A stretch of 64,000 nt of DNA, taken from assembly GCF_003334765.1 (NCBI RefSeq), contig NZ_QOWT01000008.1; one strand, given 5' to 3'. Source of the stretch: Escherichia coli (GTDB lineage Bacteria; Pseudomonadota; Gammaproteobacteria; Enterobacterales; Enterobacteriaceae). Positions 4,534 to 63,921 of this stretch are shown here, in pieces (position 1 is the stretch's first letter; each line of letters starts with the position of its first letter). The translations under genes and the position numbers were made by a program. The notes under the pieces were generated by a model. It was not told the origin of the DNA. It searched no databases and saw only the letters and a program-made list of their open reading frames with translations.

Positions 4534-6234
4534 TTACATTAACTGACTTTCCTCACCCTCCGCAGAGCGAAAGCTAATACTCACTAACGTGCCGCCGCCG
4601 GAAGGTTGTGAAAAAGTCAGCGTCCCACCTAGCCGTTCCGCGCGTTCGCGCATGATATTCAGACCATAATGACCTTCGGGTTCTTTCGGTTCACCGATAC
4701 CAATCCCGTTATCACGGATATAAACCGTGTGATTGCCGTCCGGCGCGGTGACGCAACTGACGGCGATTTCGCTGGCGTTGGCGTGCTTCATCGCATTCAG
4801 CACCGCTTCGCGAATAATTTGCAACAAATGCACCTGCATTTGCGCATCCAGTGCCAGGGTTGGCAGACGGCAGTCGAGGGTCAGTTTGGCGCTGGTTTGA
4901 TTTTGTAACGTATCCAGCATTTCCCTCAATGCGGAGGGGAGATCCGCCTGCTGCAGCGTCAGGCGGAAAGTAGTCAACAGCTCGCGTAACTGCCGATAAG
5001 CATCATTCAACGCCTGGGAAAAATCGGCCATGATACTTTGTGCGGTGGCGTTATCTTCCGGTATCGAACGCTTCAGTAACGTCAACTGGATACGTAAGTA
5101 AGAAAGTACCTGAGCCAGCGAGTCGTGCAATTCGCGGGCGATGGTCGCACGTTCTTCCATCAACAATAATTGCTGAAAATGCTTCTGCGCCTGATTAAAG
5201 TACAAACCGCGTCCCAGCATCGACGAAACGCTGTTAAGCAGCGGTTCTGATGATGAAACGTGACTATTTTGCCAGTGCAGTTCGCCGTAAACCGTCTCTT
5301 GCATTGTCACCGGTAAAATCTGCATCGGCAATTCCGGGTTTGGTTGCCCTTCGCTAATCCGCCAGTTTTCACCGACATTTAACTCCAGATATTCAGCCGC
5401 TTCATTGTCGCGAACAATCTGCAAAATATGGCGGAAACAATGCACATCAATCTGGCTAGTGTTCAGCGCCTGCGAACACTGATACAACACCTCCAGACGA
5501 CGCTTGGCCTCGTGGAGATCGCGGGTCTTTTCTTCTACTGACGCTTCCAGCGAACGGTACAATTTATGCAGCTCGCTCGACATCTGGTTAAAGGTTTTTG
5601 CAAGCAGACCAAGCTCATTCGGCAGGTTGGTATCCAGCGGCGGCGAGTCGAACTGCCCGTGTTCAATACGCTGACTGGCGGTAACCAGCTGATTCAGCGG
5701 GGCAACCACCTGATGGCGTATGCGGCGCAAAGTAAAAAAGACCAGCGTGAAAATACCGATGCCGCCAGCCAGGGAAATCGCCACCACCAGCAGCATTTTG
5801 CGTTCAGCGTAGTGCTGTAAAGCCAGTACGAACAGGTCTATCTGATTAACATAATTATTAATATTGGCCTGATACCACGGCAAATCGCCCTTGCTGAGCC
5901 GATTATTCATCTCCAGCCAGTTGGCATTCAGATGCGCATAGCGAGTTTTTACTGCTTCTGGCACATACCAGACGTTGAGGTTGGTTAATACCGGTGAATG
6001 CAGTGCCTGCTGAAATAACTGGCGATGTGCATTGAGTTGTGGACTGCCACTTTGCAAGTCGTAGCCCAGGCGGTAACTCTGCATACGCAGCGATCCGGCA
6101 ATATTGATAGCCTCAGCGTCGCGCAAACTGCTCGCCAGAGTTAGCAGAGCGATACCCGTGGAAAGAATCGACAGCAGCACAATGTAAAAAAAGGCCCGGG
6201 CCAGACTGGCCGAGACGGGTCGTTTAACAATCAC
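4534..6234 (-). CDS. narQ: nitrate/nitrite sensor histidine kinase NarQ
   Basis: ORF-track protein minus 5 N-terminal residues; inferred GTG start at 6234 gives 566 aa beginning (M)IVKRPVSASLARAFF; C-terminal HATPase domain. Confidence 0.92.
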   Translation of the reverse strand: MIVKRPVSASLARAFFYIVLLSILSTGIALLTLASSLRDAEAINIAGSLRMQSYRLGYDLQSGSPQLNAHRQLFQQALHSPVLTNLNVWYVPEAVKTRYAHLNANWLEMNNRLSKGDLPWYQANINNYVNQIDLFVLALQHYAERKMLLVVAISLAGGIGIFTLVFFTLRRIRHQVVAPLNQLVTASQRIEHGQFDSPPLDTNLPNELGLLAKTFNQMSSELHKLYRSLEASVEEKTRDLHEAKRRLEVLYQCSQALNTSQIDVHCFRHILQIVRDNEAAEYLELNVGENWRISEGQPNPELPMQILPVTMQETVYGELHWQNSHVSSSEPLLNSVSSMLGRGLYFNQAQKHFQQLLLMEERATIARELHDSLAQVLSYLRIQLTLLKRSIPEDNATAQSIMADFSQALNDAYRQLRELLTTFRLTLQQADLPSALREMLDTLQNQTSAKLTLDCRLPTLALDAQMQVHLLQIIREAVLNAMKHANASEIAVSCVTAPDGNHTVYIRDNGIGIGEPKEPEGHYGLNIMRERAERLGGTLTFSQPSGGGTLVSISFRSAEGEESQLM

Positions 6235-6439
6235 ACGCGTCTTCTCCACAAAAAATCATTAATGTTCCAGTTCGCTGAAACGCAATTTAGTCAGTGATGG
6301 GATTATTTGATCTGCCACAGTTTATAGCGAAATAGTTACTTATTCTGGGCACATGAACATTGCCGATTCCCCTGTAAGTCGGGTAATAACAACACTCATA
6401 TAAAGAATAAGGTTTTTACAACCAAAAAAGAAGGTCGTT

Positions 6440-8419
6440 ATGAATCGTTTTATTATGGCCAACAGTCAGCAATGTCTGGGTTGTCATGCTTGTGAAATCG
6501 CCTGTGTCATGGCTCACAATGATGAGCAACATGTCCTGAGCCAACACCATTTTCATCCCCGAATTACGGTTATCAAACATCAACAGCAACGTAGTGCAGT
6601 GACCTGTCACCATTGTGAAGATGCGCCCTGCGCCCGTAGCTGCCCTAATGGCGCAATCAGCCACGTTGATGACAGCATTCAGGTCAATCAGCAAAAGTGT
6701 ATTGGCTGTAAATCCTGCGTGGTGGCCTGTCCTTTTGGTACGATGCAAATCGTCCTGACACCCGTCGCGGCAGGAAAAGTAAAAGCCACGGCGCATAAAT
6801 GCGACCTTTGTGCGGGGCGCGAAAACGGTCCTGCCTGTGTTGAGAATTGCCCGGCGGACGCGCTGCAACTGGTCACTGACGTCGCACTCTCCGGCATGGC
6901 GAAATCCCGCCGCTTGCGCACCGCGCGTCAGGAACATCAACCGTGGCATGCCAGTACCGCGGCGCAAGAAATGCCGGTAATGAGTAAAGTCGAACAAATG
7001 CAGGCAACGCCCGCGCGTGGCGAGCCGGATAAACTGGCGATTGAAGCGCGCAAAACCGGTTTTGATGAAATTTATCTGCCATTTCGCGCCGACCAGGCAC
7101 AACGGGAAGCCTCGCGCTGCCTTAAGTGCGGCGAGCACAGCGTTTGTGAATGGACCTGCCCGCTGCATAACCATATACCGCAGTGGATTGAACTGGTGAA
7201 AGCCGGAAACATCGACGCCGCCGTCGAGCTTTCTCACCAGACCAACACCCTGCCGGAAATTACCGGACGCGTTTGTCCGCAAGACCGTTTGTGTGAAGGT
7301 GCCTGTACTATTCGCGATGAGCACGGCGCGGTAACTATCGGCAACATTGAACGCTACATTTCAGATCAGGCGTTGGCGAAAGGTTGGCGTCCTGACTTAA
7401 GCCATGTCACCAAAGTGGACAAGCGGGTGGCGATTATCGGTGCAGGTCCGGCAGGGCTGGCCTGTGCGGATGTTCTGACCCGCAATGGCGTGGGGGTGAC
7501 GGTGTACGATCGCCATCCAGAAATCGGTGGCTTGCTCACTTTCGGCATTCCTTCTTTCAAACTGGATAAATCCCTGCTGGCACGCCGTCGGGAAATCTTC
7601 AGCGCGATGGGGATTCACTTCGAACTCAATTGTGAAGTGGGTAAAGATGTCTCTTTGGATTCGCTTTTGGAACAATACGACGCGGTCTTCGTTGGCGTAG
7701 GCACTTACCGTTCCATGAAAGCGGGTTTACCCAATGAAGATGCGCCGGGCGTTTATGACGCGCTGCCGTTCCTCATTGCCAACACTAAACAGGTGATGGG
7801 GCTCGAAGAGCTACCGGAAGAGCCGTTTATCAATACCGCCGGACTTAACGTCGTGGTACTGGGCGGCGGCGACACCGCGATGGACTGTGTGCGTACCGCA
7901 CTGCGCCACGGCGCGAGTAACGTCACCTGCGCTTATCGTCGTGATGAAGCTAACATGCCAGGCTCGAAGAAAGAAGTGAAGAACGCCCGCGAAGAGGGGG
8001 CCAACTTCGAATTTAACGTCCAGCCGGTGGCGCTTGAGCTGAATGAACAAGGTCACGTCTGCGGGATTCGTTTCCTGCGCACGCGTCTTGGAGAGCCGGA
8101 TGCCCAGGGGCGTCGGCGTCCAGTGCCGGTGGAAGGCAGTGAATTTGTCATGCCAGCCGACGCGGTGATTATGGCGTTTGGCTTCAATCCGCACGGGATG
8201 CCGTGGCTGGAGTCGCACGGTGTAACGGTAGACAAATGGGGCCGCATCATCGCGGATGTGGAAAGCCAGTACCGTTACCAGACCACCAATCCGAAAATCT
8301 TCGCTGGTGGTGACGCCGTGCGTGGTGCGGATCTGGTGGTTACCGCAATGGCAGAAGGACGTCATGCGGCACAGGGGATTATTGACTGGCTGGGGGTAAA
8401 ATCAGTCAAATCTCACTGA
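6440..8419 (+). CDS. aegA: Fe-S oxidoreductase AegA (ferredoxin-like N-terminus fused to GltD-like NAD(P)/FAD domain)
   Basis: 659 aa; four CxxCxxCxxxCP motifs and a VAIIGAGPAGLA dinucleotide-binding motif visible; AAGAAGG RBS before ATG 6440. Confidence 0.93.
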   Translation: MNRFIMANSQQCLGCHACEIACVMAHNDEQHVLSQHHFHPRITVIKHQQQRSAVTCHHCEDAPCARSCPNGAISHVDDSIQVNQQKCIGCKSCVVACPFGTMQIVLTPVAAGKVKATAHKCDLCAGRENGPACVENCPADALQLVTDVALSGMAKSRRLRTARQEHQPWHASTAAQEMPVMSKVEQMQATPARGEPDKLAIEARKTGFDEIYLPFRADQAQREASRCLKCGEHSVCEWTCPLHNHIPQWIELVKAGNIDAAVELSHQTNTLPEITGRVCPQDRLCEGACTIRDEHGAVTIGNIERYISDQALAKGWRPDLSHVTKVDKRVAIIGAGPAGLACADVLTRNGVGVTVYDRHPEIGGLLTFGIPSFKLDKSLLARRREIFSAMGIHFELNCEVGKDVSLDSLLEQYDAVFVGVGTYRSMKAGLPNEDAPGVYDALPFLIANTKQVMGLEELPEEPFINTAGLNVVVLGGGDTAMDCVRTALRHGASNVTCAYRRDEANMPGSKKEVKNAREEGANFEFNVQPVALELNEQGHVCGIRFLRTRLGEPDAQGRRRPVPVEGSEFVMPADAVIMAFGFNPHGMPWLESHGVTVDKWGRIIADVESQYRYQTTNPKIFAGGDAVRGADLVVTAMAEGRHAAQGIIDWLGVKSVKSH

Positions 8420-62497: not shown

Positions 62498-62656
62498 GTG
62501 AAAGATATTTTATTTTCTTCCGGCGTTGGTTTTGGTATTGGTGCTTTGTTTACAATCGTGCGCTTGCCTATTCCTGTACCAAATGTATTACCGGGTATAT
62601 TATCCATTGTGTTTATGTATGTCGGATATCTGGTGGTGAAATACTTTATGCCATGA
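62498..62656 (+). CDS. candidate 52-aa hydrophobic small protein (unverified)
   Basis: GTG start with weak AAGG upstream; translation VKDILFSSGVGFGIGALFTIVRLPIPVPNVLPGILSIVFMYVGYLVVKYFMP; below ORF-track cutoff; AT-rich with rare codons. Confidence 0.2.
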   Translation: MKDILFSSGVGFGIGALFTIVRLPIPVPNVLPGILSIVFMYVGYLVVKYFMP

Positions 62657-62696
62657 TAATTTAATACGATGTATTTATTATATGGAGCACTTAATT

Positions 62697-63581
62697 ATGG
62701 AACGCGTATACAGAACAGATCTTAAGTTGCTCCGTTATTTTCTTGCCGTAGCGGAAGAGTTGCATTTTGGCCGCGCAGCAGCGCGTTTAAATATGTCTCA
62801 GCCTCCGCTCAGCATTCATATTAAAGAGCTGGAAAATCAACTCGGCACGCAGCTTTTTATTCGCCATTCGCGCAGCGTCGTACTGACACACGCGGGCAAA
62901 ATCTTGATGGAAGAATCGCGTCGATTGCTGGTGAATGCTAATAATGTATTGGCTCGGATTGAACAAATAGGTCGGGGAGAAGCAGGGCGGATTGAACTCG
63001 GCGTAGTGGGAACGGCAATGTGGGGACGGATGCGCCCGGTTATGCGGCGATTCCTCAGGGAAAATCCTAACGTTGACGTTCTTTTTCGCGAAAAGATGCC
63101 CGCGATGCAAATGGCCTTGCTGGAACGCCGCGAACTTGATGCCGGGATCTGGCGAATGGCGACAGAACCACCGACTGGTTTTACCAGCTTACGGTTGCAT
63201 GAATCGGCGTTTCTGGTGGCGATGCCTGAAGAGCATCATCTCTCATCATTTTCCACCGTCCCGCTGGAAGCGCTACGTGACGAGTATTTTGTTACAATGC
63301 CGCCCGTTTACACTGACTGGGATTTTTTGCAGCGAGTTTGCCAGCAGGTGGGATTTTCACCGGTTGTTATTCGCGAAGTTAATGAACCGCAAACGGTACT
63401 CGCTATGGTCAGTATGGGCATTGGTATCACATTGATAGCGGACAGCTACGCACAAATGAACTGGCCAGGTGTCATTTTCCGTCCGCTCAAACAGCGCATC
63501 CCTGCAGATTTATATATTGTTTATGAAACACAGCAGGTGACGCCCGCGATGGTTAAGCTGTTGGCTGCATTGACACAGTAG
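62697..63581 (+). CDS. xapR: LysR-family activator XapR
   Basis: Internal ATG 62697 gives 294 aa starting MERVYRTDLKLLRYF. Confidence 0.9.
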   Translation: MERVYRTDLKLLRYFLAVAEELHFGRAAARLNMSQPPLSIHIKELENQLGTQLFIRHSRSVVLTHAGKILMEESRRLLVNANNVLARIEQIGRGEAGRIELGVVGTAMWGRMRPVMRRFLRENPNVDVLFREKMPAMQMALLERRELDAGIWRMATEPPTGFTSLRLHESAFLVAMPEEHHLSSFSTVPLEALRDEYFVTMPPVYTDWDFLQRVCQQVGFSPVVIREVNEPQTVLAMVSMGIGITLIADSYAQMNWPGVIFRPLKQRIPADLYIVYETQQVTPAMVKLLAALTQ

Positions 63582-63646: not shown

Positions 63647-63707
63647 ATCGCAGATAGCAAAAAAGCGCCTTTAGGGCGCTTTTTTACATTGGTGGGTCGT
63701 GCAGGAT
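63647..63707. repeat. 61-bp direct repeat, copy 1: terminator hairpin plus 3'-terminal 18 nt of tRNA-Lys (copy 2 at 63803-63863 runs into intact lysV)
   Basis: ATCGCAGATAG(C/T)AAAAAAGCGCCTTTAGGGCGCTTTTTTACATTGGTGGGTCGTGCAGGAT occurs twice, 156-bp period, one mismatch. Confidence 0.8.
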
Positions 63708-63845
63708 GACTCGCTTCGCTCGCCCTTCGGGCCGTCGCCGCGAGCGGCTCCGTTGTTTCGCTGCGCTCAACTCAAACCTGCTGCAGGTTCGAATCTTTGA
63801 GTATCGCAGATAGTAAAAAAGCGCCTTTAGGGCGCTTTTTTACAT

Positions 63846-63921
63846 TGGTGGGTCGTGCAGGATTCGAACCTGCGACCAATTGATTAAAAGTCAACTGCTC
63901 TACCAACTGAGCTAACGACCC
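63846..63921 (-). tRNA. lysV: tRNA-Lys (anticodon UUU)
   Basis: Reverse complement gives a 76-nt tRNA with anticodon loop CTTTTAA and CCA end. Confidence 0.95.

Follow-up and report, generated by a model that had tools for sequence, protein, structure and literature searches.

xapX, a predicted membrane hairpin gene in the xapB-xapR spacer of Escherichia coli

We analysed a stretch of 64,000 nucleotides of Escherichia coli DNA (contig NZ_QOWT01000008.1 of assembly GCF_003334765.1, called the window throughout), which carries the xanthosine genes xapA, xapB and xapR and, between xapB and xapR, an open reading frame (ORF) of 52 codons, xapX. Judged from sequence comparison, xapX is almost certainly a genuine protein-coding gene, which encodes a 52-residue membrane helical hairpin and has given the XapX family its name. 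The best explanation for the data is that xapX is a real gene, that it would be the distal member of the xap operon and that its product may be an accessory membrane factor; we give this reading, taken as a whole, a probability of roughly 0.85. The gene is already known: a curated family takes its name from it, and the Prokaryotic Genome Annotation Pipeline (PGAP) routinely annotates it. Added here are selection statistics, its adjacency to xapB rather than to xapR, the recurrence of relatives next to NupC and deo genes, its repeated loss and a pattern in the GC content of its third codon positions (GC3).

Results

Conservation of the xapX reading frame

The original prediction had described a GTG-initiated, AT-rich ORF of 52 codons at 62498-62656 in a 251-bp spacer, located directly after a permease gene and coding for a hydrophobic peptide with one or two transmembrane helices. 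This description was borne out. The spacer of 251 nt lies between the end of xapB at 62445 and the xapR ATG at 62697; xapX is the one long ORF in it, with 40 nt between the xapX stop codon and the xapR ATG. The GC content of xapX is 0.38 and its GC3 is 0.34, compared to a GC3 of 0.55 for xapB and 0.51 for xapR. The encoded peptide, MKDILFSSGVGFGIGALFTIVRLPIPVPNVLPGILSIVFMYVGYLVVKYFMP, has a grand average of hydropathy of 1.31, is predicted by AlphaFold2 to form two helices, and contains K2, D3, R22 and K48 as its only charged residues. The window carries the K-12 segment verbatim in reverse-complement orientation relative to the K-12 record, and the K-12 copy of xapX is located at approximately complement(2522518..2522676) of NC_000913.3.

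XapX matches the NCBIfam model TIGR03510 with 64.2 bits (cutoff 27.8, E-value 5.8e-18), residues 4-50 being aligned to model positions 2-48 of 49, and this is its sole NCBIfam match. TIGR03510 is named after the position between xapB and xapR, which is the position at which xapX is found.

Between K-12 and an E. coli lineage with 92.5% identical DNA in this region, seven of seven differences in xapX are synonymous third-position changes, and both lineages carry one and the same RefSeq protein accession for XapX; the 52-nt spacer directly upstream of xapX contains six differences between the same two lineages. The xapX gene of cryptic-clade Escherichia differs at ten positions, all synonymous, and two further alleles have one conservative amino acid change each. 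The ratio of non-synonymous to synonymous substitution rates (dN/dS) of xapX is 0.00 within Escherichia, 0.056 in Chimaeribacter, 0.076 in Salmonella, 0.12 in Enterobacter and 0.21 in Citrobacter, a range comparable to that of xapA, xapB and xapR in the matching comparisons (0.02-0.13).

The gene was compared across ten genera (Escherichia, Salmonella, Enterobacter, Citrobacter, Pseudocitrobacter, Phytobacter, Entomohabitans, Chimaeribacter, Pragia and Limnobaculum). It has 52 codons in all of them, GTG and ATG being interchanged at one start position, and a Shine-Dalgarno-like purine run is found 4-9 nt upstream of the start in each genus. The GG of the ribosome binding site is invariant in six taxa despite a diverging spacer. 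The ORF block is conserved between genera, and the spacers on both sides of it are essentially unalignable. The variable columns of the xapX alignment are distributed over the three codon positions as 19, 13 and 44, which corresponds to a 3-nt periodicity. From the excess of synonymous changes, this periodicity, the frame and length kept in relatives, the start codon interchange and the invariant core of the ribosome binding site we infer that xapX is translated and evolves under purifying selection. The original prediction had named reading frame and synonymous pattern across Enterobacterales as the properties to look at, and the result is clearly positive, with 17 of 17 substitutions synonymous and dN/dS values of 0.00-0.21.

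The original prediction had also held that the ORF could equally be a non-coding part of the xapR promoter region. In that case it would be an ORF that arose by chance in the AT-rich DNA of a promoter or spacer. The presence of the ORF is by itself indeed not beyond chance: ORFs of at least 52 codons occur in 566 of 5000 dinucleotide-preserving shuffles of the spacer when the plus strand is considered and in 723 of 5000 when either strand is considered (11-14%). Its conservation, however, exceeds chance. Besides the shuffling result, a chance origin could draw on the AT-rich DNA, on the missing feature in the K-12 reference, on an RNA polymerase peak in the spacer and on the fact that no ribosome-profiling report of the ORF was found; it is contradicted by the exclusively synonymous substitutions in Escherichia, by dN/dS values of 0.00-0.21, by a frame and length kept in ten genera between scrambled flanks, by a score of more than twice the cutoff on a curated model, and by homologues across bacterial phyla, with 40% identical ones in Vibrio, Firmicutes and phages. 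The chance-ORF explanation is scarcely credible and, as far as sequence evidence can go, refuted.

Features of the xap region in the window. Positions are those of the window.
Feature	Position	Strand	Basis
xapA, coding for xanthosine phosphorylase, at the start of the cassette	60296..61129	+	ORF; annotated xapA in identical strain and in K-12
xapB, xanthosine:H+ symporter (major facilitator superfamily (MFS), nucleoside:H+ symporter family)	61189..62445	+	directly 5' of xapX; annotated in identical strain and in K-12
Terminator-like stem-loop followed by TTTT	62454..62480	+	between xapB stop and xapX ribosome binding site; pattern scan
Shine-Dalgarno core AAGG, 7 nt 5' of the xapX GTG	62487..62490	+	sequence
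xapX, GTG start, 52 codons, TGA stop, XapX/DUF1427 family	62498..62656	+	ORF, family match, conservation
xapX codons 2-20, predicted hydrophobic helix 1 with near-invariant G11, G15 and F18	62501..62557	+	AlphaFold2 and alignment
xapX codons 21-30, turn V-R-L-P-I-P-V-P-N-V including the signature (K/R)LP(I/V)P(A/V)P	62558..62587	+	40-member alignment
xapX codons 31-50, predicted Gly-rich hydrophobic helix 2 with invariant G43	62588..62647	+	AlphaFold2 and alignment
Sigma-70-like match ATGATA, 17-nt spacer, TATTAT, 9/12, over the xapX stop	62653..62681	+	pattern only
xapR, LysR-type activator of xapAB; Shine-Dalgarno sequence GGAG at 62684-62687	62697..63581	+	ORF; annotated in identical strain and in K-12

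Predicted structure and family

AlphaFold2 run on the family alignment placed helices at residues 2-20 and 31-50 and a less confident, proline-rich turn between them (mean predicted local distance difference test score 72.8). Near-invariant positions in an alignment of 40 family members are G11, G15, F18, P24, P26 and P28, and G43 is invariant. XapX has the layout of its family, which consists of approximately 50 residues with two hydrophobic helices and a (K/R)LP(I/V)P(A/V)P turn. The TIGR03510 homologues of Vibrio, Bacillaceae, Clostridia and cyanobacteria have the same size and the same succession of helix, LPIPAP turn and helix, and no structural difference between TIGR03510 and the E. coli protein was found.

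An exhaustive profile search yielded 77 representative clusters (50% identity), all of them 21-106 amino acids long, and a word-indexed profile search yielded at least 2459 clusters at 90% identity. The best 120 matches of these at least 2459 clusters are nearly all stand-alone proteins of 49-77 amino acids, and no domain fusion was seen among the matches listed, which come from Enterobacterales, Vibrio, Bacillaceae, Clostridia, cyanobacteria and others. Members are also encoded by viruses: Geobacillus virus E3 (KP144388.1 / NC_029073.1) has an ORF of the XapX family without an annotated feature at 75919-76077, and those of the Haloarcula viruses HCTV-1 and HCTV-16 adjoin the gene for the clamp-loader large subunit. 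A search of the PDB gave neither a sequence match with the family profile nor a Foldseek match, PHROGs and the defence-system library PADLOC contained no match to XapX, and a tblastn search of a plasmid collection with a family member gave no match.

Size and hydrophobicity of XapX are like those of small membrane toxins, which would make it the toxin of a type I toxin-antitoxin-like module. This is extremely unlikely, since the gene lies in sense orientation in a catabolic cassette with an ordinary Shine-Dalgarno sequence, the predicted protein has two helices and a conserved proline-rich turn instead of a single helix, and the defence library has no match to it. Furthermore, none of the frames on the opposite strand is free of stop codons in Salmonella and Citrobacter, and approximately 4070 E. 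coli genomes carry xapX as a single-copy core component of the cassette.

Genomic context across bacteria

The gene order xapA-xapB-xapX is found in all ten genera, with a gap of 34-107 nt between xapB and xapX, and xapR follows directly in all of them except Pragia and Limnobaculum. In Chimaeribacter the xap cassette is located between other chromosomal neighbours. The xapB orthologues match the Pfam family PF03825 (Nuc_H_symport).

Pragia and Limnobaculum, which belong to the Budviciaceae, have the order xapA-xapB-xapX-deoC-xapR. Here deoC (loci L026-L028, approximately 6144-6950; 220 bits) starts 20 nt past the xapX stop codon, and xapX is approximately 880 nt away from xapR. A scan of the xapX-deoC junction revealed no terminator-like site on that strand. 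Since deoC lies between xapX and xapR in this family, xapX tracks xapB and the catabolic genes and not the xapR promoter.

Relatives of XapX also occur next to a second type of nucleoside transporter. In Vibrio scophthalmi (L035-L037, 4473-10729) a homologue with 41% identity (68 bits) is encoded between nupC and deoC-deoA-deoB-deoD, and in the metagenome-assembled genome of an uncultured member of the Enterobacterales (L031, 3702-8541) nupC and yjdM are followed by a 47% identical homologue, an AT-rich gap and deoB. NupC is a transporter of the concentrative nucleoside transporter (CNT) family and is structurally unrelated to XapB. The V. scophthalmi locus resembles the xap cassette in that a TIGR03510 member lies directly downstream of a nucleoside transporter gene and upstream of nucleoside-catabolic genes, and the homologue adjoins deoC as in Pragia; it differs in having a CNT instead of an MFS transporter, a terminator after nupC and no xapR. 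Altogether, four arrangements were found in gamma-proteobacteria: xapB-X-xapR, xapB-X-deoC, nupC-X-deoCABD and nupC-yjdM-X-deoB.

Proposed expression of xapX and a possible promoter for xapR

A hairpin with a 9-bp stem (six G-C pairs), a 5-nt loop and a tail of four U separates xapB from xapX. Its folding energy is −15.2 kcal/mol, and its z-score against shuffled sequences is −1.7 in K-12; the Enterobacter hairpin is stronger, with a z-score of −3.5. All four stem changes between the two E. coli lineages keep the pairing: a G-U pair became A-U, a G-C pair became G-U, and two U-A pairs became U-G. Similar hairpins, mostly with U-tracts, are present in Salmonella, Enterobacter and Phytobacter; the one in Citrobacter is weaker, the one in Chimaeribacter has no U-tract, and Entomohabitans has none. 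Judged from its sequence, the terminator-like element after xapB is probably leaky.

Only 21 nt lie between the hairpin and the GTG start codon, which is too short for a promoter. Because there is no room for a promoter here, read-through from the xapA promoter is the simplest reading. Gene order agrees with this: xapX lies on the same strand as its neighbours with short gaps, has no independent promoter and has kept its adjacency to xapB. The odds therefore lean slightly towards xapX being a distal and lower-expressed member of the xapAB transcript that is reached by read-through. As the third gene of the xanthosine-inducible xapA-xapB transcript it would be translated from its own ribosome binding site whenever transcription passes the leaky terminator, and less XapX than XapB would be made. 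The supplements of Cappable-seq and SMRT-Cappable-seq studies contained nothing for the xapX region.

A sigma-70-like match was seen in the 3' end of xapB at 62374-62403, approximately 95 nt upstream of the xapX start (GTGATA, 18-nt spacer, TATAAT, 10/12). It could be a constitutive promoter for xapX and xapR; the number of such matches equals that expected from shuffled sequences, and a transcript starting there must still pass the hairpin.

The original prediction had considered the ORF as a part of the xapR promoter region. As an alternative to coding this did not hold, and a weaker form of it survives, according to which the 3' part of xapX may hold promoter elements as well. Citing Seeger 1995, PMC7205307 describes xapR as constitutive and not autoregulated. 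As the gap between xapX and xapR is only 40 nt, a separate xapR promoter would have to lie partly within the coding region of xapX. In ten out of ten genera xapX has a lower GC3 than xapB. It is lowest (0.30-0.40, compared to 0.48-0.63 for xapB) where xapR is located within 39-52 nt, and is nearest to the xapB value in genera with deoC or a longer spacer before xapR. This pattern makes it possible, although somewhat doubtful, that the AT-rich 3' part of xapX is also promoter DNA for xapR, and such a promoter role may be additional to coding and not in its place. The sigma-70-like match over the xapX stop codon, a candidate xapR promoter, is weak, since the match count equals the shuffle expectation and the implied transcription start lies on or after the xapR Shine-Dalgarno sequence.

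A peak of RNA polymerase (RpoN holoenzyme) binding in the xapB-xapR spacer was reported from a genomic systematic evolution of ligands by exponential enrichment (gSELEX) experiment (PMC8743547); like the sigma-70-like match and the GC3 pattern, it agrees with a xapR promoter that overlaps xapX. A sigma-54 promoter was considered as the cause of this peak and rejected: no credible −24/−12 element of the type TGGCACG-N4-TTGCW, with a GG-N10-GC core, is present, and the best candidate matches 8 of 12 positions without intact GG and GC cores, a score that is reached at approximately 1% of the window positions. On the assumption that the two genome versions are offset by 1978, the peak would lie near position 62632 of the window.

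The proximity of xapX to xapR (40 nt), the terminator-like hairpin upstream of it and the depressed GC3 where xapR is close would also suit a cis-acting leader ORF, whose translation sets the level of xapR and whose peptide is immaterial. We consider this very improbable. It is the amino acid sequence that is under purifying selection (dN/dS 0.00-0.21), the peptide is conserved in Pragia and Limnobaculum despite deoC before xapR, members of the family are found far from any xapR, and Klebsiella, C. freundii and Lelliottia have xapR without xapX.

Possible function of XapX

Several small inner membrane proteins of E. coli bind transporters and tune them, such as AcrZ (AcrB), MgtS (MgtA and PitA), KdpF (KdpABC) and SgrT (PtsG). 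Proteins of the AcrZ and MgtS type are dispensable for basal transport and mostly have a single transmembrane helix, and MgtS is an example of one small protein that acts on transporters of different folds. XapX is like AcrZ, MgtS, KdpF and SgrT in that these have approximately 50 residues or fewer, are hydrophobic and are encoded beside or co-regulated with a transporter; it differs from them in that they mostly have one helix, whereas XapX has two and a conserved proline-rich turn. Sequence homology of XapX to known small transport regulators was not found in NCBIfam, among PDB sequences or with Foldseek, and its link to transporters is known here from genomic association.

By analogy with these proteins we tentatively suggest that XapX is an accessory factor that tunes a nucleoside permease. 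It would reside in the membrane as a small, non-essential factor of nucleoside uptake, bind XapB and tune its activity or stability. A role in nucleoside uptake is suggested by the gamma-proteobacterial relatives, which adjoin NupC and deo genes in a similar manner.

Several observations weigh against parts of this reading. Klebsiella huaxiensis, Citrobacter freundii and Lelliottia retain the xapA-xapB-xapR synteny with a xapB-xapR spacer of 67-100 nt and without a remnant of xapX. In a XapB tree these xapX-less clusters nest inside xapX-bearing clades, and from this nesting we deduce at least two independent losses of xapX. Since xapX was lost repeatedly and xapABR was kept, XapX is not obligatory for the xanthosine system. 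Distant family members have other neighbours: they lie beside a gene for FMN reductase (one gene overlapping), a CsoR-like repressor or a phosphoribosyltransferase-like gene, Thermoanaerobacter members lie beside genes for CoA-disulfide reductase and PfpI, and others are found in phage-like or replication gene clusters. Because of these unrelated neighbours, the link to nucleosides would be a property of a subfamily and not of the whole family. In Vibrio nupC ends in a strong terminator, and the XapX homologue, which has gaps of approximately 260 nt on both sides, is probably its own transcription unit; since the terminator lies between nupC and the homologue, co-transcription with the transporter is not general. 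The two unrelated folds of the adjoining transporters argue against a fold-specific binding partner. In one supplementary file of the ribosome profiling study by Stringer 2021 there was no initiation site at 25224xx-25227xx; this null result carries little weight, as without xanthosine the xap genes are not induced. A Pfam-A scan of E. coli XapX gave no match even at E<=10, so that membership in PF07235 could not be established directly. The literature found on DUF1427/PF07235 consisted of one census paper from 2005, and no experimental work on the protein was found.

Some of these observations would also be expected if XapX is a real membrane protein but a general-purpose hairpin, for instance an oligomeric pore, a membrane-stress factor or a lipid-interacting peptide, which is unrelated to XapB and nucleosides and travels with the cassette. 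The unrelated contexts of the family (FMN reductase, metal-sensing repressor, Thermoanaerobacter, phage-like cluster, Haloarcula and Geobacillus viruses), the loss of xapX on at least two occasions with retention of xapABR and the two transporter folds all agree with such a hairpin. However, all four gamma-proteobacterial arrangements contain nucleoside genes, which is hard to explain by hitch-hiking alone, and within the cassette strong purifying selection has preserved xapX in different families of the Enterobacterales. A general-purpose hairpin, the main rival of the accessory factor, is somewhat unlikely. The proposal of an accessory factor of nucleoside uptake can also be widened: the XapX family would then consist of dedicated partners of nucleoside transporters (the MFS protein XapB and the CNT protein NupC), with a founder that is unannotated in the K-12 reference and a gene that also contains the xapR promoter. 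We regard this wider version as unlikely.

Distribution and annotation of xapX in E. coli

Of 5426 complete E. coli genomes, 4078 contain the xapX ORF, 4076 contain xapB and 4088 contain xapR, so that the three rise and fall together. In approximately 1340 of the 5426 genomes megablast gave no match for xapB, xapX or xapR. In strain FDAARGOS_944 an IS1 element is found in place of xapA, xapB and the 5' part of xapX. The xap region (60296-63581) is unusually divergent among E. coli, with a synonymous divergence (dS) of approximately 0.15-0.25 between K-12 and strain FUJ80154, and at the 3' end of xapB approximately 1500 E. coli genomes show no more than 90-95% identity. The divergence of the region fits an earlier description of the xap cluster as repeatedly transferred between genomes by horizontal transfer (PMC2395238).

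RefSeq/PGAP has a CDS of 159 nt exactly at xapX, which is annotated as 'DUF1427 family protein' (WP_000651752.1); members of the family are labelled either in this way or as 'XapX domain-containing protein'. Of 40 evenly sampled xapX matches, 39 coincide with an annotated CDS, and genomes of the K-12 lineage such as W3110-P are among these. In the curated MG1655 record NC_000913.3 the interval from xapR to xapB is without a feature. The original prediction had called the ORF unannotated, which is right for this K-12 record only; elsewhere the PGAP CDS is present in thousands of E. coli genomes. Many distant homologues of XapX carry a precomputed match to PF07235 (DUF1427), and the link of PF07235 to E. 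coli XapX is therefore indirect. DUF1427 was first described from plant-associated Proteobacteria (PMC554113), and a plant-associated role was guessed in that domain census (PMC554113); this guess is outdated. The name XapX was found in the literature only in the gene table of one Citrobacter koseri paper.

A direct repeat downstream of xapR

Downstream of xapR the window contains a 61-nt direct repeat (63647-63707 and 63803-63863), whose copies are 98% identical and 156 nt apart. The 3' end of the tRNA-Lys gene lysV (63846-63921, minus strand) falls within the second copy, as do the adjoining hairpin and T-run, and the first copy is a partial duplicate. The distance between xapR and lysV is 265 bp in K-12 and 109 bp in strain 720632. 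The repeat at lysV looks like an attachment-site-type scar.

Discussion

The outcome of this analysis is a testable lead rather than a discovery. It includes an annotation correction, as NC_000913.3, the most-used E. coli reference, is without a gene that is called in approximately three quarters of the complete genomes. Models of the xap switch that are limited to xapA, xapB and xapR (e.g., PMC7205307) omit one gene product. Leads that can be tested are the association with nucleoside uptake across two transporter families, the dispensability of xapX and the possible overlap with the xapR promoter. XapX belongs to a widespread family of small membrane proteins without a studied member, and E. 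coli K-12 offers an accessible representative in a simple inducible operon. If the wider proposal of dedicated transporter partners is true, the XapX family would be a new class of small-protein transport regulators.

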